The notes beneath the pieces were generated by a model. The model ran no database searches. It was not told where the DNA came from and saw only the letters and a program-made list of their open reading frames with translations. A DNA stretch of 45,295 nt from a virus (lineage: Duplodnaviria; Caudoviricetes). Positions 4,602 to 32,312 of this stretch are shown here, piece by piece. Made by a program: the position numbers and the translations under genes. Location of the stretch: the IMG/VR virus record IMGVR_UViG_3300035392_000082, positions 1 to 45,295 of that record; one strand, written 5' to 3'. Every line of letters begins with the position of its first letter. Position 1 is the first letter of the stretch.

Positions 4602-4627
4602 CGTTCTCTCTTTTCTAAAAATAAATC

Positions 4628-4645: not shown

Positions 4646-4730
4646 GTACCAGTAAAACGGTAAATTCATATTAGGTTTGTCAAATGATTGACAAAAATAA
4701 AACTAATTAAATATTTTTGGAGTATAGGTA

Positions 4731-7572: not shown

Positions 7573-7614
7573 ATCATACACCCTAATACCAAATACGGTA
7601 TTAGGGTGTATGAT
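7573..7614. terminator. Long hairpin, probable terminator of the helicase operon
   Basis: Inverted repeat atcatacaccctaatacc / ggtattagggtgtatgat. Confidence 0.7.
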
Positions 7615-11247: not shown

Positions 11248-12186
11248 TTATATTTTCCAAAATGGCATGTATGATTTATAATGAAATGACCATCCGCCAA
11301 TAATTGCATAATGTCCAGCAATAGACAATGGTTTAGATCCACCATATGGTATTACAGATCTATCTACTAAGCTTTTTATGTTAGTGGGTTTATCTGATTT
11401 AATAAGATTATTAATCATGTGTTTATGTGTTTTAGGACTATTGTTTCTATCCATAAGTTCTGCTGTGAATTTCTCACCGCAGTAAGATGAAAATATTCTC
11501 ACCTCAGCTTCTCCGGCTCCGCGTACTGCTTGATTGCGACTTGGTTTACTAAATTTATCTATTTTAGTTAGTTGACTTAATACACCAAAATGAGACAGTT
11601 TACATGAAGATACAGCTGCCCAATCGTCTCCAGTTTTCTCTAATAAAATGAAATACATAGAAGCAATTCTAACTGGGTTTTTAGTCGTCACTAATTTACC
11701 CGAATTACCAATATATGAAACAGGGCCATATGTTGGTTTATAAATACTATTTTCAATTTGTTCCACGATGTCAATTGACTCTGGTTGGTTATCTGGTGGT
11801 AGATGTAAATAAACACCATGTTCTACTATATGTGATAAAACTTCTATATGGGATTCAGTTACTTTACCTTCTATATACCAGTTGTACATTACTGGTGTTA
11901 TTATTTTATAATAATCCAATAAAGTATTAAAAGCATTATTGATTACGGATATATCTAGAGTTTTTAAAATATTAATCGCATTTTTGGAAAAAGTTTTTAC
12001 ACCTAATATTTTACAAATTAATTTGTGAGTGTCTCTATTAGCGGCATTTGTATAAATCTCATAAATCCTACCTAAATTCATCCGTGAAATAGTAGAGTTT
12101 GGATCCATTATAATATCGGCTCTGTTACCCTCGCTATCTACGGGCATGCTGGCAGCTGGATATAGTTGGCATATAATCCCTTTTCC
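11248..12186 (-). CDS. nvRNAP beta-like subunit, exon 2 (phiKZ gp73-like)
   Basis: GKGII...MP...ADIIMDP.STISRMN.G...GEAE beta motifs; joined to exon 1 it gives KMTCLHG|GKGII. Confidence 0.85.
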   Translation of the reverse strand, partial: GKGIICQLYPAASMPVDSEGNRADIIMDPNSTISRMNLGRIYEIYTNAANRDTHKLICKILGVKTFSKNAINILKTLDISVINNAFNTLLDYYKIITPVMYNWYIEGKVTESHIEVLSHIVEHGVYLHLPPDNQPESIDIVEQIENSIYKPTYGPVSYIGNSGKLVTTKNPVRIASMYFILLEKTGDDWAAVSSCKLSHFGVLSQLTKIDKFSKPSRNQAVRGAGEAEVRIFSSYCGEKFTAELMDRNNSPKTHKHMINNLIKSDKPTNIKSLVDRSVIPYGGSKPLSIAGHYAIIGGWSFHYKSYMPFWKI

Positions 12187-14085
12187 CGATGTGTTCAATT
12201 AGGTTCGTTATTCCTAACCCGCTACAGCGACTCTCACGAGCGGCTAAGCTGCTGCATGTCTCCATGCACGTCCAGACTATATCTTCATCCTATTATTTCT
12301 AAGATAGGATGCTTTCCATTTCGAGATCACTAGATCCCTACACCGGCATAACTCGGTTAGTCGTTGAGCTTTATCCATGATAATAATATATTACTGTAGG
12401 ATCTTAGTTGCGGATTGTCTAATTCATTTCTTTGTTACTATACCCAGGTAATTATTCTGGCCACTAATAAATTTCTAATATTAGTTTAGTAGAAATGACT
12501 CTCAAGATGTTCCCGTCAGTTAGAAAAGATTACTTTAACTATTACTAATTAAAGTGGCTCAGCATATAAGTAAAACAATATAACTATTTTTCAATTTCTT
12601 TAAATACCCAAAAACGGTAAGGCGTATTTGTTTTTAAACGATTTTTTATACGTGATTTATCGATATCAAAATACTTCGATGCTTCACGTAATGATGAAAA
12701 TGTCAAAACCTTATTTGTTTCTAAGTGAGTAGCGGAAATGCACTTCGCACTACATTCATACGTGGTAAAATTTGTATTCCATGGTTTATCGCTTTTATAT
12801 CTAAAAGCAAAACCTTTACTAACGCGCGTTTCCCCATTTTTTAATGCGTTCACTATGTAGTGTCTAGCTACATTAATTATTTTAGACATTTGAATTACAC
12901 TATTATTTTCAAATATTTCTCTAGTATCTACTTTGTAAGCTTGGATAGGGCCCACATTGTAATTATCGATTATTTTTATTTGATATTCCGGATATAATTC
13001 TTTAAAACGATCAATGTGATCTTGAATGTTACTCACATTCCAAATACCAAATGTTTTTTTGAATGTTCTTTGATCCGGGTGCGATTCTACTTTGCCATCC
13101 GGATACGTGACTATGAAATTAAATCTACCTGATTTTGTTCCTAATTCATGGTTTTCATAAAACCATGGTGAATCGTCAAGTAGGTCTTTTACTTCGTATT
13201 TATTGCAAACTAATCTATGTTTTGTCTTTTTCTTTAAATTAAATAATTTTGTAGTGATGTCTATTTTCATATATTCACATGCATCTCTAACCGAAGTAAA
13301 ATTTACAACTTCTTTAGTATGAACATTTCTTATTTTACATTTAATGTTATCTGATCGTAATCCATTTTTATATGCATGTACTGAATTATGTTTATAACTG
13401 CACCATTCTAGGTTAGCATAGTAACAATTATTCTTATTTCCATCTAAATGATTAACAATTGGTTTTTCAATGTGATCTTTATTTGGAACCCATGCAAGTG
13501 CAACTAATCTATGCACCATTGTATTACATATTGAATTAATATCTGGATTATAAATTTTAATTGATAAATAGTGAGACAAGTCACGGTTATCAGGTATGAA
13601 TATTAATTTAGATGTCTTTGTATCGTATATTTCACCATATTTACTTATTCCGTATCTTACAAAACCTGGAATGATTCTAAATTCATTTAGAATCATTTTA
13701 GATGATAATGTTTTAAAAGATATTGCTGGTTTTATAATCATTGTTTTACAAGATAATGTGCTTAAGTATTTAGCATTTTTATCCGTGAAGGAAATATTTA
13801 ATATTTTATCCCTGAATATTTCATGTAATTGATCGATTTCAAAATGTGCTAACAAACTTAACCAGGCAGTATCCAATTGCCTAATTATATTCCACATTTC
13901 AACAACTACTTTATTATTGACGATTTCCAGAGTGCATTCCGTACTATCGTTATTTACTATTTTACCACTTAAAGAAATTTTAAAATCATTATTACCAGGT
14001 ATTTTTTTATACATAATACGTGTCCTTTGAATTAACTACATATTATATACTACACTGGCGAGTTTTACAGATATTAGATTTTTGA
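12187..14085 (-). mobile_element. Group I intron with HNH homing endonuclease in nvRNAP beta-like gene
   Basis: 5' site after GGU, terminal G at 12187. P-like AACUGACGGGAAC, Q AAUCCGCAAC, R CUCAACGACUA, S AAGAUAUAGUC. P1 UGGU|UCA pairs with UGAGCCA downstream of the ORF. Confidence 0.9.
12584..14014 (-). CDS. Intron-encoded HNH homing endonuclease (NUMOD4-like + HNH + NUMOD1-like repeats)
   Basis: VHRLVALAW...VNHLDGNKNN...NLEWCSYKHNSVHA; IPGF..Y.IS..G; FTSVRDAC and FSSLREAS repeats. Confidence 0.92.
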   Translation of the reverse strand: MYKKIPGNNDFKISLSGKIVNNDSTECTLEIVNNKVVVEMWNIIRQLDTAWLSLLAHFEIDQLHEIFRDKILNISFTDKNAKYLSTLSCKTMIIKPAISFKTLSSKMILNEFRIIPGFVRYGISKYGEIYDTKTSKLIFIPDNRDLSHYLSIKIYNPDINSICNTMVHRLVALAWVPNKDHIEKPIVNHLDGNKNNCYYANLEWCSYKHNSVHAYKNGLRSDNIKCKIRNVHTKEVVNFTSVRDACEYMKIDITTKLFNLKKKTKHRLVCNKYEVKDLLDDSPWFYENHELGTKSGRFNFIVTYPDGKVESHPDQRTFKKTFGIWNVSNIQDHIDRFKELYPEYQIKIIDNYNVGPIQAYKVDTREIFENNSVIQMSKIINVARHYIVNALKNGETRVSKGFAFRYKSDKPWNTNFTTYECSAKCISATHLETNKVLTFSSLREASKYFDIDKSRIKNRLKTNTPYRFWVFKEIEK

Positions 14086-15246
14086 ACCATGTAGGCAAGT
14101 CATTTTGTATCCTTTTCCAGGTGTGTTTGTATACTCAATTACAAACTCAACACGGAAATCGTCTAATGGTGCTTTTCTATATAGCTTACTAATTTTTTGT
14201 CCAGTACCTTCACTCGTAACAGATAAAGCCTCAACGATTAATCTTTGAAACTCTGGAGTAATCTGTAAAGCATCGCCTCGCTCCCTATAAAATTTTCTCC
14301 ATACAGAAACAATATTACTGTAAAACTGTCTTCTAGCTAAATCATATTTGAGTGCCTGTTTATCCATATGCATATCAGCGTAGTTAGTCTTAGACAAATC
14401 GTGATATATTTTTATATCTACTACTCTACCCCCTGGACCAGCAACATAAGTAGTGCTGTCAAATATAACATCTACCAACATAGTGTCTCTAATACTTTGC
14501 TCTACCGGTGACAAAATATCTGGATCAAAACTACGTAAAGCCATTAATATACCATCTTTTCTTACAAAATCACCTATGTCAGGAAATGGTTTATAATTAT
14601 TTTCATCGCCGTATAAATTCAAAGCAAACTTCTTGTTACCCCATTCAACGACTCTGTGTTCATATGTCTTAAACCTTAGTTTAGGTAAGACATCATCGCT
14701 AATTAGAATGCTATCTTCTGATGATGCTGGATGTGTCATTAATGCGATGTTTAATTCAATACCGTATTTATAATTACTGTCATCTGTAACATTTGGTGAA
14801 TCTAAAAAAACCGTATCTTTCGGTATCATTGCTCCAACATGTAATTGATTTAAACCATTCTTATTTACGTATTGAAATCCAAAATATTGATGATTTGTAC
14901 AATATCTAACTAAACTAATTATACCTAATTCTTTAGTATTAATATCTTCATATATTACAATGATCTGAGGATTTTCATTAATCGAATCTTCACCAAGCGT
15001 AGGTTTGTATCTATCAATAATTTCTACAATCTGTCCATCTACTGGCATTTTAACATTAAAAGTATATTTGCCATATTCCCTTTCAAAACCAGTTTGACAT
15101 TTTCTTTCAGTGGCCCCATCTATAACAAGCATTTGTCCAAGATGAGAACTCACCATATGTAAACGCCCAGAAGAGTCGTGTTGAATCCATGGATTAAAAC
15201 CACTAATGGACATTAAATCTAGGTGTAATTCATTTGGTTGGTTCAT
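14086..15246 (-). CDS. nvRNAP beta-like subunit, exon 1 (phiKZ gp71-like)
   Basis: PWIQHDSSGR.HM.SSH..Q, TGFE, EDSILIS, GRVVDI, GYKMTCLHG. Confidence 0.88.
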
Positions 15247-15281
15247 GTTTTTACCTTTCAGTTAAGTAGAAATAATTCTCA

Positions 15282-15310
15282 CATTTTAGTAATATGTGAT
15301 CACAAAAAAT
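15282..15310 (-). promoter_or_regulatory. Repeated early-type promoter upstream of beta-like subunit
   Basis: ttagtaatatgtg core (minus strand CACATATTACTAA). Confidence 0.65.
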
Positions 15311-15324
15311 TAAAAGGAAATTTA

Positions 15325-15666
15325 ATGGATATTTACGATATGACAATAGATTCTGGAGATGATTTATTTTATTCAAAAAGTTTTATGGATACATTGGAAA
15401 CTCATTTAGATTTTTTTAGAAAAAGCACTAGCACAAGAGTAGTTTCTGTAGATGCAAAAAAAACAGCCATATACGACGGTGATCTATTTGGGTTATTAAA
15501 TGAACTTAATGTAGAACAACGTTATCATTGGTTAATTATGCGAGTAAATAATTTTTACAGTAATTATGATTTTGGTCCAGGTATTACTTCTCTATTAATA
15601 CCGTCTCAAACAGAAATAGAAATTATAAGAAGTTCATATATTTCTACAGGCGTAATGTCTCTTTAA
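15325..15666 (+). CDS. Small protein resembling T4 gp53/LysM-type baseplate wedge proteins
   Basis: AAAGGA RBS before ATG 15325; YHWLIMRVNN...DF...LLIPS pattern. Confidence 0.45.
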   Translation: MDIYDMTIDSGDDLFYSKSFMDTLETHLDFFRKSTSTRVVSVDAKKTAIYDGDLFGLLNELNVEQRYHWLIMRVNNFYSNYDFGPGITSLLIPSQTEIEIIRSSYISTGVMSL

Positions 15667-15673
15667 AAAAAAC

Positions 15674-15705
15674 TATATCCCCTACCAGCTACGGTAGGGG
15701 ATATA
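15674..15705. terminator. Hairpin between convergent genes
   Basis: tatatcccctacc / ggtaggggatata. Confidence 0.7.
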
Positions 15706-15715
15706 TGATGCTTAT

Positions 15716-16972
15716 TTAAATCCTACAAAATCCAACATTTTGTTGATATGGTTGTGGGTATTGTGGCTGATTAAAACCACCCATACCGTACTGACTTGGG
15801 TCAAAAGACCCCCTTAATTGGCTAGGTCCAGGTTGTTGATAATTCATCATTGGGTTACCGATGTTTGCTACACCTGGGTTATTGCGAAGAGATTCGGACC
15901 AATTTAATGTTCCGGTTTGATTAATCACTTGTCCATGGTTAGGTGCCGGTTGTTGCTGCTGGTACTGTTGTTGATATGGTTGCTGATACTGCTGTGGTTG
16001 GTATTGCATAGGTAGTGCTGGTTGCGGTTGTGGTTGTGGTTGAACTGGATTTACTGCATATGTTGGTGCAGTTGCAGGTGGAGGTTGCTCTTTAACGTTA
16101 CCTTCATTACCTGCTAACATTGGAATGGACCTAATTTCATTTTCCATTTGCCCCAAGTTTTCAAACATAGGGACCCAATCATCCTCGTATAAATATTCTT
16201 CTGCATTTACTGACATGTAATCTGAATACACATTTACTACTGTATTAATTCTACACGCAATATTCATTACGCCATGCATTAGAGAATCCAAGAATGGTGC
16301 AATTTGTGACTTACTTCCATAATCCATTGAATTTTCAATTTCGATATCTGGAATAGTGTATTCAAGCAAATGCATTATAATAAGCCTGTCTTTATTCCTT
16401 AGCGTTACTCCGTATGTTTGCTTATCATTTTTTACTAATTCATTATAAAGAGGAAACGTAACAATGACAGCTCGGTTTGATCTAATGCCTTTTACAACAG
16501 CACTTCGTTTTAGATATAACCTAACAATGCATTTCTCTTGATTATCTTTAGACATTGCACTAATTAAAGAAATCAATGCATTCTTAGTTTTCTCATCCGC
16601 ATCTTTAATGCTTGTTAATAGCTCAGCCTGATCAGGTGTTAATTTAGGATGAATATCTACATTTAATACAATCTCCAATAATTCAGTCAATAATTGACCG
16701 ATTACCATATTGAATTTTGTATTAACAGCACTTCTAAATTTAGCCAGTACTGTACTTTCTGGACGCATTGCATTTTCGCTTAATGGATGAAAAGCAATTC
16801 TATTAGACCAATCTCCGTTTTTTAAATGTTCTCTAGTTGGTAAAACTAATCGTTTACCGTCTACAGAAAAAGGCATTGCTGTACCTCGAATGGATGCTGA
16901 TATATATCCTTCATCATCTGATACTAAACTACCTGCTGATAATATTGATTTATAAAAATCTATAATATTCAT
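15716..16972 (-). CDS. Conserved chimallivirus protein (phiKZ gp70-like) with Q/P-rich tail
   Basis: GKRLVLPT and AFHPLSEN motifs; synteny; low-complexity C-terminal about 125 aa. Confidence 0.6.
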   Translation of the reverse strand: MNIIDFYKSILSAGSLVSDDEGYISASIRGTAMPFSVDGKRLVLPTREHLKNGDWSNRIAFHPLSENAMRPESTVLAKFRSAVNTKFNMVIGQLLTELLEIVLNVDIHPKLTPDQAELLTSIKDADEKTKNALISLISAMSKDNQEKCIVRLYLKRSAVVKGIRSNRAVIVTFPLYNELVKNDKQTYGVTLRNKDRLIIMHLLEYTIPDIEIENSMDYGSKSQIAPFLDSLMHGVMNIACRINTVVNVYSDYMSVNAEEYLYEDDWVPMFENLGQMENEIRSIPMLAGNEGNVKEQPPPATAPTYAVNPVQPQPQPQPALPMQYQPQQYQQPYQQQYQQQQPAPNHGQVINQTGTLNWSESLRNNPGVANIGNPMMNYQQPGPSQLRGSFDPSQYGMGGFNQPQYPQPYQQNVGFCRI

Positions 16973-18435
16973 TAAATATCTCCGAAATTAAAATTATTCA
17001 CTATTGACAAATTTGGTTTACTGTCAGATACTTGTGAAAGTATGTTATTAAAATCATTTGCAATTCCAACGCTGTTTAAATAATTATTTGTCACCATCGG
17101 TGTCATTAGTGCGTCACAGAAACTAGGTGTAACATACATTACAAAAGGTCCTGAATTTAACGATAAATTAATCCAAGTTTCTCCTAGTAAATCACATTTA
17201 ATATCAATTGCAAAATCCATTTGACCATTAAACGATAAGTCACGCAATAACTCGTACTCTACTTTAAACAGTACAGATTTTACGTAACTCGTAATATCCA
17301 CATTCTGCATAAAGCTTTTTACATCAATTACCTGTATAGAAACTTTTCCTCCAAAATCTCTATTAGTAGCTTGAATATGTATTAAGTTTATACAAAAATC
17401 TAACATATAACCTGGTAAAGACTGGCTCACGCATGTAGCGAAAACTGTTTCATTGTCAGCTGCAGCCCAATCGGATGTTAAGCCTGTTTGATGTAATGTA
17501 GCCCTAGTTGTAGTTGTTAGTGGTAATACTTTCGTTGTATTAACAACATTGTTATCAATGCCAATTAAATCACCGTAACAAAAACTATCACCATTACCAT
17601 TGTACTTACTTCTTAATATCGCCATGAATGGATCTTCACTAACGCTATTAGAGCTATTAAGGCTACTAGCTCGATGCAAAATCTCCTCACGCGTATCATT
17701 AATACCTTCATTAGGTTTTACTTTCATATAGCTGTCAATGATACTAGATACGTATACTGGCGCAATAGCGTTTGTTCTTTTTGACTTTATAGGAATTGTA
17801 GTTAACAGTGTTTGAGTATCTAGAAAATCAGTTAAACCTTCCGATACTTGTATATCTGCTGTATCCATTTGTAAATAAATATCTTCTGGTCGCATTACAA
17901 AAGAATTATTACCGGACTGTACTGTGGAATATTGGTTATTAATCAATACGTGACTAGCATCAATACTATTTTGATACAACTGCGTACCTAATGGTGTCGT
18001 ATGTGACATGTAGCGTGTAGCATTAATCCCGTTAATAAAGAACCTCATATTAGGATCTAATTGATTACTCAAACTAACTCCTGCATAATCAGTATAACCC
18101 ACTACGTATTCTGTAATAATGCACCCCATTTGTTCTTCGATTTGTAGCTCTAAGAAAAATCGTAGTCTACGCTCATTCCACCCGTTTGGAATATAGAGGT
18201 GACTTTCAGGTTGAGCACTAGGGTGTAAAAATTGACTAGCCACACCTGTCAAATTACTAGCTAAGACTTCTTTACTACCGACACTCTTTTCCACAATAGT
18301 GTTAAATGTCTTATGATTCATGCTACTTACAAATGGCCGTTTCCATTGTTGGTTATATGTTCCAGTTTCCTGGATAATAAACTTTACTACACGCATTTGT
18401 TTCATGCCATACATTGTTGTTTGATGAAAACTCAT
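16972..18435 (-). CDS. picA: Probable phage-nucleus protein importer PicA/Imp1 (phiKZ gp69-like)
   Basis: Position directly after the gp68-like gene, similar size. Mainly synteny; start uncertain. Confidence 0.6.
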   Translation of the reverse strand: MSFHQTTMYGMKQMRVVKFIIQETGTYNQQWKRPFVSSMNHKTFNTIVEKSVGSKEVLASNLTGVASQFLHPSAQPESHLYIPNGWNERRLRFFLELQIEEQMGCIITEYVVGYTDYAGVSLSNQLDPNMRFFINGINATRYMSHTTPLGTQLYQNSIDASHVLINNQYSTVQSGNNSFVMRPEDIYLQMDTADIQVSEGLTDFLDTQTLLTTIPIKSKRTNAIAPVYVSSIIDSYMKVKPNEGINDTREEILHRASSLNSSNSVSEDPFMAILRSKYNGNGDSFCYGDLIGIDNNVVNTTKVLPLTTTTRATLHQTGLTSDWAAADNETVFATCVSQSLPGYMLDFCINLIHIQATNRDFGGKVSIQVIDVKSFMQNVDITSYVKSVLFKVEYELLRDLSFNGQMDFAIDIKCDLLGETWINLSLNSGPFVMYVTPSFCDALMTPMVTNNYLNSVGIANDFNNILSQVSDSKPNLSIVNNFNFGDI

Positions 18436-18457
18436 TTTTCTTTCCTTTTAAAAAATG

Positions 18458-19987
18458 TTACCGACTCTTTACTAACTCAATAATTAACCGTGCTAATAAT
18501 ATTTTAATATCTGGTGGACAACTAAATCTCCTATTCCCGTCTTTTCCTGTTACTTCTAAAACAAATTCATCACCGATAGTTAATAACCAATCTCTTTGAC
18601 TTAATTCTTTTTCTATTTCATCTATAGCGCTAATTATTACATTCGCTACCTTACCTTTTTTTCTTTGAGAATTAATTTTATTAAATGGATACCATTTATT
18701 AAGTTCATTCATTAAGTCTGCAGGTATGCGTGTTCTAGAATCAATGCCACTCAACATTGCATCGTCACCACTAGTAGCAATGGCGCTCATTAAACAAGCT
18801 AATACTTTATGGTTACTTTCCCATAATAAAGTTTGAGCTATTGCAATTGCATTTATAACATGTTTTTTACTTAAATGATCAATTCCCCTAGGAGATACGA
18901 CTGGTTTTAAAACGTACTGAGCAATAGCTACTTGTGGTTTCCATATTTGTTGATCATTTAAAGCTAACCTACTATTGTTGATAAAATACTCTAATAATTC
19001 CAAATTAACATTCGGTTTTAATTGCAATGCAACATTAACCGGGTTATCCATGTAATGCTCAAGAATTACAATATCGCCTAAAGGTAATTCTGTTTTTATC
19101 TTATATGTTTCTAATCTAGAAGCATTATGTTCATTATAAGAATCTCCACTCTCAAATTCTTTAGCCTTTACCATATTAGCAAAGTTTCCAGTATTTGAAT
19201 TATTTACTTTATGACTTACAAAATTCCATATGAAGGTAACTATAGAAGATGTTTGATTAATGCCTGTGATATCGCCTATACAAAGTTTATTTATTAATAC
19301 TTTTGCAAGCAACCAATCAGGATATGTTTCGCTTCCAATTCCATTTATAATAGACTGATATAATGGTTTATCAGATAAAATATTATTTGATACATATACC
19401 CTCAATTTTTCCATTGGCGGCGAGTTTATTATATTGGATTTAGCCAATAATTGAAAAGCAAAAAACTCTTTGAATAACGTATCTGTTTCTCTTTTTGTTC
19501 TATAAATAAATTCTCCCCATACAGGTATCATTATTCTTAAACATATTGTCATTGCTAATAATTCAACATAATCAGATTTCAAATATGTTTTTTCTCTACT
19601 ACCTGGTTTTTCATCTGAGGCAATATATACATCATCCATTTCGTAAACAAATGTTATATCTGAATGAAAATTCATCCAATGGTTAACATCGTCTAATAAA
19701 TGATCATCAAATAAATCTTTCACTAAATCCGATAACCCGTATATTAGTAAAGAAGGTTCATATATCTCCTCAAGCATATTTTTAATCTTACTAAACGTAA
19801 TAAAGATTTTCTCTTGTTTATATCCAGGTAAAAAACACCAATACTGATTTATATGTTTGAATACATCGTAACCAGATCTAAATACTTTTTTATCAAAACA
19901 AGATATGCTCCAATTAATAACATCGTTGTTATTAAACATATGCAATATACCATCTTTTAAACTATCTTCAGAGATTTCGATTCGCAT
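18458..19987 (-). CDS. nvRNAP fifth (sigma-like) subunit (phiKZ gp68-like)
   Basis: TYLKSDY.EL...IPVWGEFI; synteny. Likely start ATG 19987 (AAGGG RBS). Confidence 0.65.
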   Translation of the reverse strand: MRIEISEDSLKDGILHMFNNNDVINWSISCFDKKVFRSGYDVFKHINQYWCFLPGYKQEKIFITFSKIKNMLEEIYEPSLLIYGLSDLVKDLFDDHLLDDVNHWMNFHSDITFVYEMDDVYIASDEKPGSREKTYLKSDYVELLAMTICLRIMIPVWGEFIYRTKRETDTLFKEFFAFQLLAKSNIINSPPMEKLRVYVSNNILSDKPLYQSIINGIGSETYPDWLLAKVLINKLCIGDITGINQTSSIVTFIWNFVSHKVNNSNTGNFANMVKAKEFESGDSYNEHNASRLETYKIKTELPLGDIVILEHYMDNPVNVALQLKPNVNLELLEYFINNSRLALNDQQIWKPQVAIAQYVLKPVVSPRGIDHLSKKHVINAIAIAQTLLWESNHKVLACLMSAIATSGDDAMLSGIDSRTRIPADLMNELNKWYPFNKINSQRKKGKVANVIISAIDEIEKELSQRDWLLTIGDEFVLEVTGKDGNRRFSCPPDIKILLARLIIELVKSR

Positions 19988-20010
19988 GAATACCCTTTCA
20001 AAAATATATA

Positions 20011-20040
20011 CCAGATTAGTAATATGTGGTTTAAAAAAAG
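20011..20040 (-). promoter_or_regulatory. Repeated early-type promoter
   Basis: ccagattagtaatatgtggttt, near-identical to the 30401 and 40204 copies. Confidence 0.7.
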
Positions 20041-20064
20041 TAGATAGTTTATTAGTTATCATTT

Positions 20065-20099
20065 CTGTACATTAGCAACAAATAGTTACTAATGTACAG
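20065..20099. terminator. Hairpin downstream of ChmC-like gene
   Basis: ctgtacattag / ctaatgtacag. Confidence 0.55.
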
Positions 20100-20110
20100 T
20101 ATGATTAATG

Positions 20111-20770
20111 TTAAAAAGGTAAATCGGTTATATCATCATTTGTTGGTTTGTTACTATGGTAATTGCTACCTGATTGTTTATTTGAATTGTATGGTAGCGG
20201 TGGCACATAGTTAGCGACCAGTACGTTACCCATCAATTCGCTTAATAAATTATAATGTGCTCTAGCATAAATTACAGATATTTCTGCTTTTGTATATTGT
20301 GTTCCGTCAGAATGAAAGAATTTATGCCAACGATCATCGCCAGGACCAAATATAAATTTAACTACAGGGCGCTCTTCTTTTTTTGAAATGACGGAAATAA
20401 AAACACATCCATCTTTGTCTTTACCAATCCACGTGTCTGTTAAATGTACAGGGTCATTACTTCTTTGACCTTGTACATATTCATTTCCATAGTTTTCAAT
20501 TTTATATTTCACTTCTTCCATTGACTCGTATGTCATTTTTAGAAATTCTAAGAATGTGTAAAAAGCCAAACTATCCATTGCAGCAGTAATCATTCCATAA
20601 TTATATTGCTCATCACCTGGGTCATTTGTCCTTACAATAATCCTGGGATTATTCATGTAAATATCCCAACGTAATTGGGAGAATTTACCATGTGCAGTTG
20701 GACAAGGTGAGCTAAGCGATAGCTTAGAGTTATTTAATGCAGTTTTAACTTTCTCAGTTTTTTCAGCCAT
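20111..20770 (-). CDS. chmC: Probable ChmC/Imp6-like nucleic-acid-binding protein (phiKZ gp67 position)
   Basis: Synteny immediately before the gp68-like gene; N/S-rich tail ending DDITDLPF. Confidence 0.55.
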   Translation of the reverse strand: MAEKTEKVKTALNNSKLSLSSPCPTAHGKFSQLRWDIYMNNPRIIVRTNDPGDEQYNYGMITAAMDSLAFYTFLEFLKMTYESMEEVKYKIENYGNEYVQGQRSNDPVHLTDTWIGKDKDGCVFISVISKKEERPVVKFIFGPGDDRWHKFFHSDGTQYTKAEISVIYARAHYNLLSELMGNVLVANYVPPLPYNSNKQSGSNYHSNKPTNDDITDLPF

Positions 20771-20827
20771 TTTAGTTTCCTTTTAAATTAATGTCGGTGC
20801 ATTACATTGTTAAAGTTTATCTTTTTT

Positions 20828-21685
20828 CTACTTTAGCATTTGCAACAAAATCGTAATAGTGTATGGGTCAATTAGATTTTTAATATTTAACTTTATTCTT
20901 TCTTTATTTGTTACATTTGTCCATTTGTTTTTTTCTGCTAGTGCAATTATATTTTCCCTAGTTTCTTTAGGCCATGGTAAGAATGTAGAACTATCACCAA
21001 AAACTTGTAAAAATGTTTCATTAAACGGTATTCTCGTTAGATTTTTGTGATCTAAATATTTAGTATTCCACGTGTCTTTCTTTTTAAGTACACCAGTATG
21101 TGATTCTAGTAAATCTAACTCTAAGAAATTTTTCTCGCTTAATAAATCATACGCATAGCTAGTCATTGTCAGCACTTTATTTTTTACTTTAGGTTTTATT
21201 TCTAAATGAAAATGTTTTACAAAATCTGATTTAGCTTGTTTCTTAAAATACGCTCCTATACTTTTTACAAGTAAAGCAGTGTATATCTTTTGCTTTTCAG
21301 TAGTATCGTTCCGTAATCTAGAATGCGGATACTTTCTTTCTAACCCAGCATAATCAGATGCATAGATTACTACTTTAGTTTTCTCATACGTGATATCCTT
21401 TACTAATTGTTTAATTATATCAACTTCAAATTCAATTATATCACAAATGTCATTTGGCATCACTCCATTAAAACCATTCTTTGGTAAGGCTCCAATTATA
21501 TTCCTAAATAGCGTTAAACTATTTACCCAGAATTCATCGTACTGACTCAAATCAAATCTGGTCGGTATTAATCTATTTGGGTCATATGGTTCATTGGGCC
21601 CATCAGCTAATGTTTCTAGTGCTAAACTGGTCCCAATAGAAACTGGGAAAGCTGACATAGTTCTATCAGCTAACACAATAGTCAT
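20828..21685 (-). CDS. Conserved chimallivirus protein, possible PIN/5'-nuclease-like fold
   Basis: PVSIGTSLALE, N.LTLFRN and LLESHTG motifs; ATG 21685 overlaps the upstream stop. Fold is a guess. Confidence 0.5.
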   Translation of the reverse strand: MTIVLADRTMSAFPVSIGTSLALETLADGPNEPYDPNRLIPTRFDLSQYDEFWVNSLTLFRNIIGALPKNGFNGVMPNDICDIIEFEVDIIKQLVKDITYEKTKVVIYASDYAGLERKYPHSRLRNDTTEKQKIYTALLVKSIGAYFKKQAKSDFVKHFHLEIKPKVKNKVLTMTSYAYDLLSEKNFLELDLLESHTGVLKKKDTWNTKYLDHKNLTRIPFNETFLQVFGDSSTFLPWPKETRENIIALAEKNKWTNVTNKERIKLNIKNLIDPYTITILLQMLK

Positions 21686-22821
21686 GTTAATTCCTTCAAG
21701 TGTAACATACATCTATCTAGTACATTACTATCAATGTTCATTTTATTAATCCTGTCCGTCACTAATGGAATAATAGTATCTTTACTAATTATCATTGGTG
21801 TATAAATAGATTCATCAATTACATTTACTGTGTCTTCTTTTTCATCCTTATCTTTTATTAACATGCTCCAATTTAATAAAGGCCATCTTTTTCTAACTGT
21901 ATCTAAACTACTAGTAATAGCATTTCCTTGCTTAGATGTTATTCTGACATAAGACCCAGTATTGAGTAGTTTTACTTTTTTATCTATTCTTTTTAAGTTT
22001 ATTTCTACATCTTCGTATGGGCAATTTATAGTTAAAAACTTTCTAGCATTAGTATTCTCTATAAACGAAACGGTGTAGCTATAATCAGGATTTAATGTAG
22101 CATCTAAATACCCTTTACTTTCTTCTTCACCGTGAGCTAATCTATCAAAGCTACCACCGGCATAAATTCTATCTAAAGAAGAATGTTTATGAATATGTCC
22201 AATAAATATTAAACCTTTTACTAGCTCTAAATACTCTTTACTATTATGTTTGATATTATCCTTTATCATTCCATCCATTTGATAATCAAAAAGACCATGC
22301 ATTATTGCGATGTCTACTTTATCAATATCCTTACTTTGAAGTAGTTCTTTAACCTCTGTTAAAGTTACAGAAGTTTCATGATTCCATTCATCAGGAACGT
22401 ATAACACATTAATATCAAATTTTTCAATGTACTCCACGCTTAACGTTTTAATGTATGCAATATCTACATAAGAGTGAGATACATTACAATGTATATTTGC
22501 TATGACGTCAAATCTAACTGATTGTTGTCTATCGTGACTAGGTGTACCTTCTAGCACTCTTACAACAATATTATACTTATTACATTTCTTCAAAAACCTA
22601 GAAATCCACATATCAATTAACCCAGCGTCTACGCTTGGATAGGTTAAGAGGTCATCAAAAAAATCTCCTGCAATAAATACAATATCTAGATTAGATAAAT
22701 GTAAATCATTAGAAAAACAATTATATAAATTTTCTAAAATGTATTTGGTTTCATTTCTCTTACTGCCGACATGCACATCAGAAATGACCGATATTCTAAG
22801 TGGTTTAGAATTCAAATTCAT
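21682..22821 (-). CDS. SbcD/Mre11-like metallophosphoesterase nuclease
   Basis: SDVH, AGDFFD, GTPSHD, MHG, GHIH, GSFDRL.HGEE..KG. Confidence 0.88.
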   Translation of the reverse strand: MNLNSKPLRISVISDVHVGSKRNETKYILENLYNCFSNDLHLSNLDIVFIAGDFFDDLLTYPSVDAGLIDMWISRFLKKCNKYNIVVRVLEGTPSHDRQQSVRFDVIANIHCNVSHSYVDIAYIKTLSVEYIEKFDINVLYVPDEWNHETSVTLTEVKELLQSKDIDKVDIAIMHGLFDYQMDGMIKDNIKHNSKEYLELVKGLIFIGHIHKHSSLDRIYAGGSFDRLAHGEEESKGYLDATLNPDYSYTVSFIENTNARKFLTINCPYEDVEINLKRIDKKVKLLNTGSYVRITSKQGNAITSSLDTVRKRWPLLNWSMLIKDKDEKEDTVNVIDESIYTPMIISKDTIIPLVTDRINKMNIDSNVLDRCMLHLKELT

Positions 22822-23347
22822 ATTGATCATCACTATCTAATTCTTTAGATTTTTTGTTAATCGTAATTTTTCCATAGTACTGAAATAATTCAATCCATTC
22901 CTTTTCCAGCGTACTTGAATCATGATCAGCTGATAAATTATTTAATCTATTATTCAATTCATCATTTACAATGTTATTAGCTAATCGTGGACTTAAACTA
23001 GCTTTTTCTCTAGCTAGTTTAAATATATAAGACAAATCTTCATTTCTATTCACTATAGGAGAGATCACATCTCTATCATGAATAGGTGGTACTCTTGCTA
23101 TAACCTTACCATTATTATCTAGGATATTAACAGCGCTATATGTGGACCCAGCAATATTAATCCAAGTACTTAATACCTCATTATCACTATCTTCCATTTC
23201 TCCAGAAAAATACGGTAAGAAATATGTTCTGAACATAATGTCTGGAATATTACGTACATTATATTTTTCCATTGATGCAAAACCTTCCTTCAAGAATTCT
23301 AGCCTTTCATCAAACTGTTTTTCCATTAAACTTTTAATTTCATTCAT
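22805..23347 (-). CDS. Hypothetical conserved phage protein
   Basis: 180-aa ORF in operon. Confidence 0.65.
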   Translation of the reverse strand: MNEIKSLMEKQFDERLEFLKEGFASMEKYNVRNIPDIMFRTYFLPYFSGEMEDSDNEVLSTWINIAGSTYSAVNILDNNGKVIARVPPIHDRDVISPIVNRNEDLSYIFKLAREKASLSPRLANNIVNDELNNRLNNLSADHDSSTLEKEWIELFQYYGKITINKKSKELDSDDQYEFEF

Positions 23348-23349
23348 TT

Positions 23350-23757
23350 TTAATTTCCTGTATTATTGATTTTTACAATTTTTTGCATTTTACCATCTAC
23401 AGCTTCTAGTAATCTCATAAAGGTATAACTAGATCCAGCTTCCGTTACTGTTATACTAATAGTTAATTCAATATTAGAAACTTCCGTATCAGGTGTTGTA
23501 ACTTTAACATCGGCATCAAGATAATAGCGTTTAAGATAATCCTTTAAACCGTTAGTTAAACCAAGTATAGTTGATTCAATATGGTTACCACTATTTTCTA
23601 TAATCCGAGTTAAACTAGTTACATGGCCTTTGTATAAATACGTTTGATTATAATCAGATAAGAAGAAATGACTCAATAAGAAATCAAATTTTTTTACAGC
23701 ATCAGTGATGTAGCCTAGTGTTGATAAAGTCGGTACTGGGGTTATTTGATCTGACAT
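23350..23757 (-). CDS. Hypothetical conserved phage protein
   Basis: 135 aa, AGGAG RBS. Confidence 0.65.
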   Translation of the reverse strand: MSDQITPVPTLSTLGYITDAVKKFDFLLSHFFLSDYNQTYLYKGHVTSLTRIIENSGNHIESTILGLTNGLKDYLKRYYLDADVKVTTPDTEVSNIELTISITVTEAGSSYTFMRLLEAVDGKMQKIVKINNTGN

Positions 23758-23778
23758 ATTTCTCCTAGTTACAAAAAA

Positions 23779-23804
23779 ATGGTAGTGCGTTTCTGCACTA
23801 CCAT
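23779..23804 (-). terminator. Rho-independent terminator
   Basis: atggtagtgc / gcactaccat stem followed by a T-run on the minus strand. Confidence 0.7.
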
Positions 23805-23807
23805 ATA

Positions 23808-24440
23808 TTACATCATTCCTCCATCGGAATGTGTTGGATCATCTCTACATAGAGCTAACAGATATTCCAATTGTGTCCAACCAGATAATATATCAGTTTT
23901 TTCATAAAGTAATAAATCTCTATCACCTTCCTTTAATTGATCCATGTACTGAACGATTTTATAATCATCTTCAGATACTTGTACCATACAATCCATTACG
24001 CGTCTATAATCGTAATGGTTTTCTCCAATATCACCTGGACTCATGTCTACATAGCTAGTAGAATATCCATCAATTCTTTGATTATGATACATTTCTCTAG
24101 TAGTAGGATTAGCCATTAGCCATCTCTGCATTACTAATCCGGCATCTTGAAAATCACATAAAACAGATAGTTCTCTGATATTATCTATTCTAATTTCCGT
24201 AGTCCCCATTACTCGATTTACTACATCTCTAGCAAATCTCATTGCGTCACTATTATGAAAATACTCATATAACTCTCTACCTTTTTCCATAAATTGTTTA
24301 GCTGGCTCTGTTAAAGTATTACTTAAATTATCAAATTGACTTCTAAGATAATTCAAGGTAGATGGATGAGTTTCGCCGTATAATAAAGCATTAAATTCAT
24401 CAGCCGCTCCCATGTTTGTTAACGGAAAAGCGTAACTCAT
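23808..24440 (-). CDS. Conserved chimallivirus core protein
   Basis: 210 aa, AGGAG RBS, MQRWLMANP and HYDYRRVMD motifs; function unknown. Confidence 0.65.
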   Translation of the reverse strand: MSYAFPLTNMGAADEFNALLYGETHPSTLNYLRSQFDNLSNTLTEPAKQFMEKGRELYEYFHNSDAMRFARDVVNRVMGTTEIRIDNIRELSVLCDFQDAGLVMQRWLMANPTTREMYHNQRIDGYSTSYVDMSPGDIGENHYDYRRVMDCMVQVSEDDYKIVQYMDQLKEGDRDLLLYEKTDILSGWTQLEYLLALCRDDPTHSDGGMM

Positions 24441-24453
24441 TAATTACTCCTAT

Positions 24454-24684
24454 TTAATTAAAAGCTAATTGTTCCAAAAAGTTTTGTTTAATTGGATTTA
24501 TTTCACGATTACTGATATCATAGTGCATGTAGTTACTAATGGTAGATACTACAGGACTAGGTATAGATGCGCATTTTGAAAGACCGCGATGTTCATTAAT
24601 GTCAAACATATTTTTATGCGGTGCTAACGATTCTGCTTCATCTATAGTGTCATTATCCATTAACAGTATTAAGTTCATCTGATC
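24454..24684 (-). CDS. nvRNAP beta'-like subunit, exon 4 (DQMNLILL...)
   Basis: Begins GAT CAG ATG AAC right after the intron-terminal G; supplies the last Asp of NADFDGD. Confidence 0.88.
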   Translation of the reverse strand, partial: DQMNLILLMDNDTIDEAESLAPHKNMFDINEHRGLSKCASIPSPVVSTISNYMHYDISNREINPIKQNFLEQLAFN

Positions 24685-25033
24685 CAATTGATTCAATTAG
24701 GTTCGTTATTCCTAACCCGCTACAGCGACTCTCACGAGCGGCTAAGCTGCTGCATGTCTCCATGCACGTTTAGACTATATCTTTACTATGTAAATAGTAA
24801 CTTCCATTTCCACTCACTTGAGTGTACTCGCTTGCGCGTTAGTCGTTGAGCTTTATCCATGGTAATAATATATTACTGTAGGATCTTAGTTGCGGATTGA
24901 CTAATTCATTTCTTTGTTACTATACCCAGGTAATTATTCTGGCCACTAATAAATTTCTAATATTAGTTTAGTAGAAATGACTCTAAAGTGTTTCCCGTCA
25001 GTTAGAAAGTTTTAATGACAGCGTTCAAATTTT
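24685..25033 (-). mobile_element. Group I intron 3 (ORF-less, 349 nt)
   Basis: P1 GACGGU pairs with GCUGUC (U-G at the splice site); P10 AUUUGA/UCAGAU; P, Q, R and S elements; terminal G. Confidence 0.9.
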
Positions 25034-25045
25034 ACCGTCGAAATC
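25034..25045 (-). CDS. 12-nt micro-exon 3 encoding DFDG
   Basis: Minus strand aaaag|GAT TTC GAC GGT|aaaatt between two complete group I cores. Confidence 0.88.
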
Positions 25046-25376
25046 CTTTTGTCCAATCAATTCGTTAAATTGACCCGGTATGTTGTACCTGCTATATGTC
25101 TCCATACAGAACAGACTATATCTTCTACCAGTTTGTAAACTGGTAGTCCACTGCTTCGGGGTTACTAACCCCTACTCGCTTATGCGTTAGTCGTTGAACC
25201 TTACTCATATCTTTCGACTTAGAGTCTTGGCTGCTGATTGTCTCTACTTAATATTTTTCAAACTATCATAATCTCTTTTCAGGATTATTGTAGTATATTA
25301 GTCTAGCGAGAGTTTCCAGCAATTCAATGGATTTTACATATGTCATTACTGACATAGTAGCCTACTTTTTCGGTCA
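25046..25376 (-). mobile_element. Group I intron 2 (ORF-less, 331 nt)
   Basis: 5' site after AAU GCU; P AAUUGCUGGAAA, Q AAUCAGCAG, R GUUCAACGACUA, S AAGAUAUAGUC; P10 CGAAA/UUUCG; terminal G. Confidence 0.9.
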
Positions 25377-25468
25377 AGCATTTTGGATTCTAACCGATAA
25401 AATAGATAAAGTTAATGTGGGGTCATCTGGGTCCGTCTTTACCTTAGTAATCCTCATTCTCTGGCATG
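25377..25468 (-). CDS. nvRNAP beta'-like subunit, exon 2 (92 nt)
   Basis: Joins exon 1 as RNPSLVRG-S-CQRMRITKVK...SVRIQNA, keeping the frame. Confidence 0.85.
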
Positions 25469-27207
25469 CCTTGTATTCACATGTGTCGTTAATACATGCA
25501 GTTCTCTCTGTTATTATAAACAGGAACTTCCCTAAAATTTCTCTAGGATAGTAGATCATGTCTTCATCCTCAGTATTAGCTGTTAGGATGTCCACCGTTT
25601 CACACATCACTTGATGGCTACGAGACCGACGTCTCTGATCGTTGAACTTTCTCGCATATTTGCAACATTAAGATTTTTTGATCAATAAATGCAAACTTAG
25701 GAGCTTAGCTGCATAGTTACCCAATCCAAATCGTTTTCAAACATTCGCTTTGACTTTCGTCTCGCAGTAGTGATTTGGCTCTAAGGGACTCCTAGCAATT
25801 AAATGGATTATCTTTTACAATTACTTGTAAAAGGGACATTTTTATATTAACTAAACAATATATCTAACTTTATACCCGTCTATTATAGCCGCGCCGTTAT
25901 TACTGTACAAACAATCTGACACGTACCGGTTCCCTTTTGATAGAAACCGAGAAAATTCACGCGGGCTACAATACACTTTCACGCTACCGTTCGGATCAGT
26001 AACATGAATGGGATTTTTAATACCTCTTTTATTTTTAAAAGCAATTATTTCATCTTCTGTATACTTTCTATCTGGTTTAGGGCTACTTAAAAATCCAAAT
26101 ACTAATCCTCTAACTGGCCACGCGAACGGTGATTCGACGGCTGTTCTAACTTCATCTTTTGTAAAGTTTAAAACGTTAGCTAGTTTAGTAGGTGAGTCAG
26201 CTAAGTATTTCATACCTGTAACAATATCTTTAGCATAGCACTTTAAATCATTTTTATGCAAATTATAGATTTTCTCAAATGCTTCTAATTCTGTTTTTTT
26301 ATACAATGGCCAATCATTATCAACAATTTTAACAAAGTATCTAAATTTAATAAGCGATTGTTTTTTTAGAAAATAGTGCAGTGTACCACTATTCATTTCT
26401 AGATAATTAGCGCCATCAGTTAAACTATTAAATCTATTTACGGTACCTGTATGATAATCTTTAATAAAAATTTCAAGTTTAACATCCCTTAATTTAGTAT
26501 TCATTGCGTGTATGTTATTATCACTATAGGTAACCCATTCTAAATTAATTAAATCATTATTAAACTTATTTCCATCTATGTGATTAATGGTTAGTTGATT
26601 TACATTAGGGGTATATTCTATAAATGCTAAACCTATTGCGCGATGGACACCTAATACTGTTCTGTATCCATTATCACATTCAATATTAAAATTGATATAG
26701 GTGTTTTCAACTCTAAAGTTTGCTTGCCTAGTACTTACATAAAAATTTCTTTCTCTATTATAAACAACACCGTATCTGTTTATACAATATTTACTAAAAC
26801 CAGGTATGATTTTAAAACCGTTTAAAAATGGGTCATCTTGTCCACCTAATGGTGGTTTCCATATTAATTCAGCTAAATCAAGTTTATTTTCACTATTTTT
26901 TAACACTGTCCAGTTTTTTATAAAAACACTTGAGTTATAAACAGGTTTAAAAGTTATAGCCATTAACCAGGTTATATCATATTTAGAAAGGCAATTAAAT
27001 AATTTTAATAAATATATTCCGTTTTCTTCTGGTTTAACAATTTCTCCAGTTAAAATATTTTTTATTATACCTTCAACGTTTATTGTGTAAACATTGTCCG
27101 AATAAGGTATAGTTAATTCGTTAGTTTTGATATATTGTCTTAGCATGAGTAATTCCTATTAGTTTATCATACTATGGTTACTCACACCAGTTAATGGAGT
27201 ATTGTTT
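25469..27207 (-). mobile_element. Group I intron 1 with HNH homing endonuclease
   Basis: 5' site GGAU|AA; P1 GGAU/GUCC; P AAUUGCUAGGAG; R GUUCAACGAUCA and S AAGACAUGAUC; terminal G at 25469. Confidence 0.85.
25851..27146 (-). CDS. Intron-encoded HNH homing endonuclease
   Basis: VHRAIGLAF...INHIDGNKFNN...NLEWVTYSDNNIHA; IPGFSKYCINRYG; FNSLTDGA. Confidence 0.92.
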   Translation of the reverse strand: MLRQYIKTNELTIPYSDNVYTINVEGIIKNILTGEIVKPEENGIYLLKLFNCLSKYDITWLMAITFKPVYNSSVFIKNWTVLKNSENKLDLAELIWKPPLGGQDDPFLNGFKIIPGFSKYCINRYGVVYNRERNFYVSTRQANFRVENTYINFNIECDNGYRTVLGVHRAIGLAFIEYTPNVNQLTINHIDGNKFNNDLINLEWVTYSDNNIHAMNTKLRDVKLEIFIKDYHTGTVNRFNSLTDGANYLEMNSGTLHYFLKKQSLIKFRYFVKIVDNDWPLYKKTELEAFEKIYNLHKNDLKCYAKDIVTGMKYLADSPTKLANVLNFTKDEVRTAVESPFAWPVRGLVFGFLSSPKPDRKYTEDEIIAFKNKRGIKNPIHVTDPNGSVKVYCSPREFSRFLSKGNRYVSDCLYSNNGAAIIDGYKVRYIV

Positions 27208-28345
27208 ATCCGCGTACTAATGAGGGGTTTCTTGAAAACAGACAATATATACATTTATCAGGGGACTCGTCAATTAACTCTTGAAATAATTTATCAATTA
27301 ATTCATTATATTTACAAGTCATTTCCTGTAATAATGCAGCTGCATTTGTAGGATTAAAACCTAACTTTAACAATTTGTTTGTTAAATGAATTTTAAACAT
27401 AGTAACGCCTACGCCCCATGAAATATGTAATTCGTCATATTCATGCGCTACTGTATTTGATGAAATTACTGCTCTAGCAGAAAAGTAATTTCTACTACCA
27501 AAAATATGTTTTCTAAATAACCCTCCTTTACTAGCCATGATATCTTCGTATACATTATTACAAAAATCAGCTAGAATAAATAAGGTTTTAGCAGTTCTGT
27601 TTTCTCTTTGTTTCTGGGTGAATGTACATAATTTTGTATCAATACCTGTAATTGTTCTAATAGCATCTACTGCTCCAACAACAATTGGGTCTACGAATAT
27701 TCCAACTTCAGTATCCTCAATAACCAACAAAGATTTGTTTGGTAAAGGAAGATGCCAACTCAAACAACAACTTCTATTTTGTAATAAATGTTCTTGTAAA
27801 TATTCTCGAACACCTTTCTTAGGTCTAAAGTGTTTTAATGAGAATAATATTTCTATATATTGATCAAAGTTTTTAACAAAATTATTATAACCTCTTTGTA
27901 CCCCCAGATTTAATAGCTGATCTAATTCGATCGGTCTATTATAAGCTGACCTGTAATCCGTATTACAAAGCCATTCAATTATATTAAATTTAGCTTTTGT
28001 AAATTTGGCACTCAGTTGTATTAATACCATTGGATTTATTAATTTCTCTACACCAACAGGTGATCTCATCCATATTAGTGTTTGTAATTCCTGATCAAAT
28101 AATTCTTTAACAGGTGTTTTACAATTACTACAAACTAACCCAAGATTATAACCGCTCTTTAGTTTACCGCATTCACAAGACGGTTCATTACTCATTAACT
28201 CACTTTCTGTTCTAGTAGAAATTAAATTATCTACATAATCTCTTTCGGTTTCAGTCACTGTGCTAATATCGTTAACTACAATAGGCGTAACTGTGGATTC
28301 ATTAAAAAGATCGTCGCCATTATTTAATGCTAAATAAACACCCAT
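27208..28345 (-). CDS. nvRNAP beta'-like subunit, exon 1 (phiKZ gp55-like)
   Basis: CECG...CSNC Zn ribbon, GLFRKHIFGSR..FSARAVI, RNPSL; directly downstream of chimallin. Confidence 0.9.
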
Positions 28346-32272: not shown

Positions 32273-32312
32273 TCATACACCCTATTATCTTAATTGATAA
32301 TAGGGTATATGA
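32273..32312. terminator. Hairpin terminator
   Basis: tcatacaccctattatc / gataatagggtatatga. Confidence 0.65.

Follow-up and report, generated by a model that had tools for sequence, protein, structure and literature searches.

Ectopic gene conversion as the likely source of near-identical modules in two non-allelic group I introns of a jumbo-phage RNA polymerase

The genes for the beta and beta' subunits of the non-virion RNA polymerase (nvRNAP) in IMG/VR virus record IMGVR_UViG_3300035392_000082 each carry a group I intron, here named I-beta and I3, and the two introns are near-identical over two internal modules. This near-identity is likely the result of ectopic gene conversion between old introns at non-allelic sites. 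The window, as used below, is the whole analysed stretch of 45,295 nucleotides. Judged from its genes, it is a fragment of a nucleus-forming jumbo phage of the Chimalliviridae-like type: a shell protein gene adjoining the nvRNAP beta' gene, PhuZ and split RNA polymerase (RNAP) genes are present (PHROG 4795, 4733, 2987, 3295 and 3015), and the gene order is that of phiKZ.

A search with Rfam model RF00028 (cut-off 50 bits) gives four group I introns for the window, each of them encoded on the minus strand. The exon limits were set with the intron-free relative L001, and the splice scan was limited to boundaries of the form U/...G/, where the slash marks a splice site, as it does in the protein motifs below. 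Removal of the introns yields gap-free proteins relative to L001, with 511/701 identical residues in beta and 341/490 in beta'. The parts of I-beta and I3, including open reading frames (ORFs), and the region between the repeats are as follows.

12187-14085, minus strand: group I intron I-beta, 1899 nt, site HG/GKG (RF00028, 88.7 bits; ends by splice scan)
12584-14014, minus strand: HNH/NUMOD1 endonuclease ORF within I-beta, 476 aa (PHROG 59; Pfam NUMOD1 above cut-off, HNH_3 just below)
12356-12502, minus strand: I-beta module 1, with P5a/b, P4', P6, P6a and the P7 5' strand, 145/147 identical with I3 (self-comparison)
12272-12355, minus strand: unshared part of I-beta, with P7.1, P7.2, the P3 3' strand and P8 (with CC:GG), then the conserved J8/7-P7 3' strand (folding and alignment)
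12194-12271, minus strand: I-beta module 2, with P9, P9.1 and P9.2, 78/78 identical with I3 and 62 nt identical with a virion-RNAP intron on contig L005 (self-comparison)
24685-25033, minus strand: group I intron I3, 349 nt, ORF-less, without P2, site DFDG/D (RF00028, 76.4 bits; splice scan)
25004-25033, minus strand: site-typical P1/guide and P3 5' strand of I3, matching the same-site introns of relatives G003 (26/31) and G002 (21/30) (alignment)
24838-24984, minus strand: I3 module 1 (self-comparison)
24770-24837, minus strand: site-typical part of I3, with P7.1, P7.2, the P3 3' strand and a short P8, 83% identical to the G002 same-site intron (alignment)
24692-24769, minus strand: I3 module 2, P9-P9.2 (self-comparison)
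12503-24691, no strand assigned: inter-repeat region, about 12.2 kb with 13 ORFs, including beta exon 1, gp66-like and gp68-like genes, an SbcD-like nuclease and beta' exon 4 (gene annotation and alignments)

The helix labels P1-P9.2, the subgroup name IA2 and part of the gp names are our own assignments. Subgroup IA2, the phage td/sunY/Twort type, has P7.1 and P7.2 between P7 and P3' and an extended P9.1/P9.2. In both I-beta and I3, two hairpins (P7.1 and P7.2) are predicted before P3' and P8, together with an extended 3' end; judged by these predicted features, both introns fall within IA2. Whole-intron folding by minimum free energy (z -2.07) is weak evidence, since P3/P7 is a pseudoknot. 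A P1 joining the exon-end U to a guide G is predicted in both introns and the terminal intron G is found; the introns presumably splice, and intron-free alleles exist in L001 and FLC9.

The P1 duplex of I3 has a predicted energy of -7.8 kcal/mol. In I-beta, the predicted P1 encloses the HNH ORF, with the exon end and the P2-proximal guide forming a duplex of -9.5 kcal/mol; this guide sits 1.5 kb from the 5' exon end. A second guide candidate lies at 14040-14095 (minus strand), where the beta exon end pairs over 9 bp just inside the intron 5' end (-9.6 kcal/mol), possibly serving, close to where the HNH ORF starts, as a decoy or a second form of P1. The pairing energies are nearly equal, and we prefer the P2-proximal guide because G003 keeps it. 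A promoter scan upstream of the I-beta HNH ORF found nothing.

As originally predicted, 12194-12271 is identical to 24692-24769 (78/78; self-BLAST of the window, E 9e-112), and 12356-12502 differs from 24838-24984 by 2 mismatches in 147 nt. A further 17-nt tract is exact (12510-12526 and 24992-25008). Both mismatches in module 1 keep the predicted pairing, one as a P5 U-A versus A-U pair opposite the unshared P5 5' strand, the other as a P6a G-U versus G-C pair. The divergence noted outside the modules is also borne out: P1-P3, with the internal guide sequence, agrees at 15/30 positions between the copies, and P7.1-P8 is unalignable. PHROG and Pfam profiles place an HNH ORF in the beta copy only, the beta' copy being ORF-less, and both 5' exons end in GGU (HG/GKG in beta, DFDG/D in beta'). 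Among 50,697 phage records the best matches to the shared core are partial and about 70-80% identical. A 20-nt core pattern searched in viral contigs led to two near-identical loci, with introns only about 70% similar.

Introns at the same sites in relatives give the two copies separate histories. We collected 126 related loci, some from one contig, of which 46 have intron matches. G002 and G003 (70-82% protein identity) carry introns at NA/DFDG and DFDG/D, and the latter site is also occupied in G005, G006 and L077. The HG/GKG site holds an intron in G003 and L077, and the beta intron of G002 lies 3 nt off, at HGG/K. The automatic acceptor scan misplaced many beta sites and was used only where the sequence was checked by eye.

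A segment-wise comparison of 19 introns (3 dropped for failed anchors) divides I3 between two sources of similarity. Its nearest match is I-beta for P4-P5 (0.95), P4'-P7 (0.98), P9 (0.94) and P9.1-9.2 (0.95), and the G002 same-site intron for P7.1-P8 (0.83). Over the intron-only P1-P3, it is closer to the same-site introns of G003 and G002, at the counts listed above, than to I-beta. The trees, also of 19 introns, follow this division. On P1-P3 plus P7.1-P8, I3 groups with the G002 same-site intron (support 100/99), and a grouping with I-beta is rejected by the approximately unbiased (AU) test (p-AU 0.0016). On P4-P7 plus P9, I3 groups with I-beta (100/99), and groupings with same-site introns are rejected (p-AU 1e-5 and 1e-6). 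Comparing intron phylogeny with insertion site had been proposed as a check; once run, it makes the position of I3 switch with the segment. The tree of the 3' module alone gave no resolved topology.

These alignments indicate that I-beta and I3 are old residents of their sites with replaced interiors, because the guide and P8 of I3 match same-site introns and the HNH ORF of I-beta matches that of G003. The two HNH proteins are 69% identical, near the host-protein level (71%), yet the P4-P5 cores of their introns are unlike. The nearest outside relative of the shared core is the G002 beta intron at HGG/K (95/93), and the other four DFDG/D introns examined have different cores; on these grounds a transfer from beta to beta' is weakly favored, with the caveat that the I-beta core also looks imported. 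The shared tracts are closer within the genome than to orthologs, and the trees conflict along the sequence, as expected for ectopic conversion. The original prediction had named gene conversion between the introns as one of two explanations, and it gains support from this conflicting segment ancestry and from the patchwork described next.

The 3' module also has a third copy, traced through read depth. Its 60-nt unitig reaches a near-threefold 76.6x in run X1, a candidate for the source sample, and this led the search to L005, a separate contig from the assembly holding a second record of this DNA. L005 encodes virion RNAP subunits and carries an ORF-less intron at DD/PKR. The P9.1-P9.2 region of this intron shares 62 exact nt with I-beta and 60 with I3, and its P4'-P7 region shares 60 exact nt with I2, the beta' intron at NA/DFDG; I2 itself shares only 14 nt with I-beta or I3. 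The sharing among the four introns fits no single tree, and this patchwork points to ectopic gene conversion.

L005 is probably from the same phage as the window. Its GC content is the same (32%), its tetranucleotide correlation with the window (0.979) is the highest of 8 sequences compared (next 0.966), three runs give it a depth similar to that of the window, and its identity to a record sharing the assembly number of G002 is about 80%, as is that of the window to G002. The DD/PKR site is empty in a related record (L186, 80% identical) and holds an intron in another (L187). The L005 virion-RNAP protein has no match in G002-G006, all five of which are partial records, hence uninformative on this point. 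A second L005 intron, in the virion RNAP beta gene (4500-6448, minus strand), is below the Rfam cut-off and holds a 485-aa DUF723-repeat endonuclease ORF; it has no 13-nt tract in common with the other five introns.

The pattern recurs in other phages. The survey took in 84 introns; they come from 22 genomes or loci, each having two or more, with one locus taken per near-duplicate and with two AR9 fragments and other weak hits excluded. Of the 193 within-genome pairs, 43 share an exact tract of at least 30 nt, 25 one of at least 40 nt and 20 one of at least 50 nt; the corresponding counts among the 3293 between-genome pairs are 15, 3 and 0, and the longest between-genome match is 42 nt. Thirteen of the 22 genomes reach 30 nt and eight reach 40 nt. 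The concern that unrelated phage introns might routinely be this similar is thus allayed between genomes and holds within jumbo-phage genomes, where sharing is common. In L077, introns at the same two sites as in the window have a common 82-nt tract, different from that of the window, which ends before P3'/P8. In phiKZ, two introns (AF399011 50168-50489 and 186396-186717; L021 and L013) have exact tracts of 83 and 29 nt flanking an unshared P3'/P8. Shared modules are therefore a recurring feature of multi-intron jumbo phages, of which the present locus is a clean example and not a unique one.

The helices differ in how often they are shared. Coverage was counted in the 40 within-genome pairs whose shared tract reaches 25 nt, with 61 of the 84 introns anchored. 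At 80% coverage, the P3 5' strand and P8 are each included in none of the 40 pairs, P6a and P7.1 in 7 each, P9 in 12 and P9.1 in 20. There are partial exceptions: in one AR9 pair the sharing extends over 74% of the P8 window, and in one L091 pair over half of that for P3. With AR9 left out, 12 pairs remain, and the coverage of the P3 5' strand and P8 is still 0. Baseline divergence is similar across the compared helix regions. In I-beta and I3, the native P3 pairings are predicted at -4.3 and -6.5 kcal/mol, versus -1.7 and -5.1 kcal/mol when swapped. I-beta has a GUAA-capped P2 and a CC:GG P8, and I3 has neither; P5 and P9 move together in the sharing between the two introns. L2-P8 and L9-P5 are described as recognised group I contacts (PMC11571812).

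We propose that short conserved core stretches could seed strand invasion between non-allelic introns. The exchange would take place during phage DNA replication, when many genome copies are present, or during break repair, perhaps at an HNH cut, a trigger that is a guess on our part. A crossover would delete about 12.5 kb with 13 ORFs, among them the gene for the gp68-like subunit, the first beta exon and the last beta' exon (exon 4), and such products would be lost. According to one account, nvRNAP activity is essential in phiKZ (10.64898/2026.09.21.753271), so only non-crossover products would persist; a crossover between the repeats would, as the original prediction reasonably held, be lethal. 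Conversions would then survive only where the RNA still folds, and where a tract ends would be determined by selection on this folding. Free movement would be open to the P4-P6 domain and to P9, which the L9-P5 contact links. The parts held in place would be the guide, P8 and the two P3 strands, which are bound to the site, to one another and to L2; P3' would have to fit the site-bound P3 5' strand.

Tentatively, jumbo-phage group I introns at large might be viewed as a site-locked scaffold (guide, P2, both P3 strands and P8) with exchangeable cassettes (P4-P6, P7.1 and P9-P9.2). The cassettes would be continually homogenised within a genome, and RNA tertiary contacts would decide which tracts survive. 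If true, this model would let neighbours repair ORF-less introns and would make whole-intron phylogenies misleading.

Several points weigh against gene conversion as told here. No exchange event or intermediate was observed, and recombination is what we infer from the sequences; the assignment of L005 to the same phage is likewise inferred. The segments are short, at 146 and 248 columns, and were drawn after the window pair had been seen. I-beta is not firmly grouped with its G003 counterpart on the site segments (44/70), and its residency therefore rests on the guide/P2 (76% identical) and the HNH ORF. Nine of the 22 genomes, including PhiPA3, LucasX and G002, are without a 30-nt shared tract. 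In the helix count, 28 of the 40 pairs come from AR9, and 23 of the 84 introns could not be anchored. One of the P3 swaps costs only 1.4 kcal/mol, and the association between L2 and P8 is modest (34/45 versus 5/12, p 0.037, among 57 scorable introns, with crude patterns and related sequences).

Among the alternatives, a third donor would have both sites take the same pieces from introns of co-infecting relatives, without contact between the two loci. The G002 beta intron is the nearest outside relative of the shared core, the same-site beta intron of G003 has another core, run X4 is rich in related intron pieces, and mosaic alleles are reported for the yeast omega intron (PMC4059233). However, the same donor would be needed twice, over two tracts, exact sharing of at least 50 nt is confined to within-genome pairs, and the event would still be ectopic recombination, by another route. 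We regard this course as improbable.

Recent transposition with a re-targeted guide, the other explanation originally offered, would have brought a copy of the I-beta ribozyme, through reverse splicing or relaxed homing, to the active-site codon of beta', with loss of the HNH ORF and evolution of a new guide. It would suit the near-identity over 225 nt, the GGU preceding both sites and the ORF-less state of I3. The guide/P3 and P7.1-P8 of I3, however, follow the same-site introns of other phages (G002 and G003), and the AU test rejects I3 with I-beta in these segments. An unalignable P7.1-P8 between two near-identical tracts is unexpected for a recent copy, and the DFDG/D site with its 12-nt exon is old and widespread. 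A recent copy should show uniform near-identity and a site that is empty or unrelated in relatives; we find neither, and such an origin is quite unlikely.

An old duplication, with the shared parts held identical by purifying selection on the fold, is very unlikely. Cores are conserved in all group I introns, and both mismatches keep pairing, but the identical tracts span the peripheral P5a/b, P6a and P9.1, which average only 44-51% identity between genomes, and same-site orthologs are far less alike.

The read data bear on the assembly. In run X1, depth is 56.1 on a shared 122-nt unitig and 26.3-30.2 on the unique unitigs beside it, and each of the two alternative middles is present (169 nt at 29x and 153 nt at 26.3x), so that the repeat does not appear collapsed or misassembled. 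Pieces of both copies are also found in runs X2 and X3 from other studies, and a second assembly record (L004/L006) agrees exactly with the window over 17.5 and 20 kb. The repeats cannot be phased from unitigs; we accept the phasing because the native P3 pairs beat the swapped ones and both ends of I3 match same-site introns elsewhere. An unconverted allele was not found in the contigs of X1, X2, X3 and X5, and contigs drop rare variants. A joint of 12292 to 24814 in X4 was considered as a 12.5-kb deletion and rejected; other letters stand between its sides, and it was read as the intron of another phage. An assembly artefact, through double use of one intron's reads or a merging of strains, is scarcely credible: repeats of 78-147 nt do break k=31 unitigs and cannot be phased by contigs, and X1 and L004/L006 may not be independent of the window, but the shared unitigs have twofold and near-threefold depth with both middles at single depth, pieces occur in X2 and X3, the mismatches keep pairing, native P3 is better than swapped, the I3 5' end and P8 each match same-site orthologs, and the isolate genomes phiKZ and AR9 show the same pattern.

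The remaining parts of the two polymerase genes, with the beta exons joined at HG/GKG, are as follows.

14086-15246, minus strand: nvRNAP beta (phiKZ gp71-73-like) exon 1, ending in His-Gly (GGU) (PHROG 3295; spliced-protein alignment to L001)
11248-12186, minus strand: nvRNAP beta exon 2 (profile match and spliced-protein alignment)
27208-28345, minus strand: nvRNAP beta' (gp55-56.1-like) exon 1 (PHROG 2987; splice scan)
25469-27207, minus strand: group I intron I1, 1739 nt, with HNH ORF 25851-27146 in the predicted P1 loop (RF00028, 54.6 bits; splice scan)
25377-25468, minus strand: beta' exon 2, 92 nt (splice scan)
25046-25376, minus strand: group I intron I2, 331 nt, ORF-less, site NA/DFDG (RF00028, 91.2 bits; splice scan)
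25034-25045, minus strand: beta' exon 3, 12 nt, encoding DFDG (best splice in scan)
24454-24684, minus strand: nvRNAP beta' exon 4, its first residue the last Asp of NADFDGD (profile match and splice scan)

The three beta' introns, the DFDG codons as a 12-nt exon and the third copy of the 3' module on another contig go beyond the original prediction. The catalytic motif of beta' is interrupted as NA/DFDG/D, and the exon between I2 and I3 holds two of the three catalytic aspartates. The same 12-nt exon is present in G002, G003, L048 and L068 (DYDG). Exons of 9 to 21 nt are seen at the DFDG motif in L091, L142, L073, L071 and L127. Skipping of the 12-nt exon would take out two catalytic aspartates in frame. 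For I2, a 5' splice site after SV was rejected (score 232, versus 255 for NA/DFDG). I-beta and I1 carry intact HNH ORFs, the kind of encoded endonuclease that marks a mobile (homing) intron, and I2 and I3 have none; I1 has no tract of at least 13 nt in common with the other five introns of the set.

Among relatives, the DFDG/D intron of G003 (L176/L182; G003 22290-22610 onward) has an ORF after P9, whereas I3 and the G002 intron are ORF-less. The NA/DFDG intron of G002 has an HNH ORF in its 5' part. A group I intron lies in the gp74-like beta' C-terminal gene of G003 (L123 16360-16760), a gene that is uninterrupted in the window. In L132, both RNAP genes are in several frame-shifted pieces without intron matches, probably through sequencing error.

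Elsewhere in the window, an 11-nt motif is repeated in 37-42-nt repeats, mostly upstream of genes, at 7511, 15286, 20016, 30406, 32233 and 40209 (minus strand). It resembles the phiKZ early promoter consensus, and a similar word occurs in P6a of the G002 and G003 introns. Perfect or near-perfect 40-nt hairpins at 7574-7613 and 32273-32312 follow a common 60-nt intergenic repeat and are possibly terminators or processing sites. Pro-Thr-rich tandem repeats (43586-43642 and 44418-44596, plus strand) lie in ORF 43058-44926, a region that also matches L005 1490-1613.

Group I introns in jumbo-phage RNAP genes are already known from phiKZ, AR9 and PhiPA3. In phiKZ, the nvRNAP is described with the spliced fusions gp55/gp56/gp56.1 and gp71/gp72/gp73 (10.64898/2026.09.21.753271; GenBank AF399011). 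The same two genes stand in the same order, with group I introns near NADFDGD and HGGKG, and the gp55 intron has the 83-nt exact tract in common with another phiKZ intron, at 186 kb. The phiKZ sites, however, are N/ADFDGD and HGG/KG, 3 nt from those of I2 and I-beta, each phiKZ gene has one intron whereas beta' in the window has three, and the two phiKZ nvRNAP introns are not near-identical to each other. By eye, P7.2 of I3 (window 24795-24825) resembles that of the phiKZ gp71 intron and P7.2 of I-beta (12310-12345) that of the gp55 intron, a reversal of the gene assignment. The phiKZ pair with 83- and 29-nt tracts is a ready laboratory model for the proposed exchange.

In Bacillus phage AR9 (KU878088), RNAP genes are likewise split by group I introns, g270 being in 2 pieces with HNH g271, and the g270 exon match ends at DYDG. 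Many exact tracts of 46-81 nt form a patchwork among its non-allelic introns. The 14 scored AR9 introns are of one family and often share P7.1-P7.2, which is unshared in I-beta and I3. In T4, recombination between the non-allelic td and sunY introns is said to have given functional hybrids that showed modularity (Bryk and Belfort in 1990), reportedly as laboratory single-crossover deletions between cores of roughly 60% identity. The window would differ from these in being a natural, non-crossover homogenisation of modules.

The mosaic omega intron of yeast mitochondria is attributed to gene conversion between alleles (Wu and Hao 2014, PMC4059233); these are alleles at one site across strains, whereas the window has different genes in one genome. 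Phage Twort is described with three similar introns in one gene (PMC3073962), resembling beta' in number, short exons and similar sequences but in another gene and phage family. In PhiPA3, also a nucleus-forming phage, the gp210 intron is a group I intron that carries an HNH and interrupts an RNAP gene; it is described in the context of competition (Birkholz et al. 2024, PMC11620839); the four PhiPA3 introns share at most 28 nt. A literature search of incomplete coverage found no account of tracts shared among non-allelic jumbo-phage introns. What is new here is a clean test with same-site orthologs, together with the apparent exclusion of P3 and P8.

Introns that are near-identical yet lie at different sites invite a reading as recent jumps, the least understood step of group I spread. 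The same-site orthologs available here indicate that such identity can arise by overwriting the interiors of old introns. Should wider sampling bear out the avoidance of P3 and P8, the folding of the RNA would be legible in DNA recombination tracts, and whole-intron trees of phages would need to be split by module.

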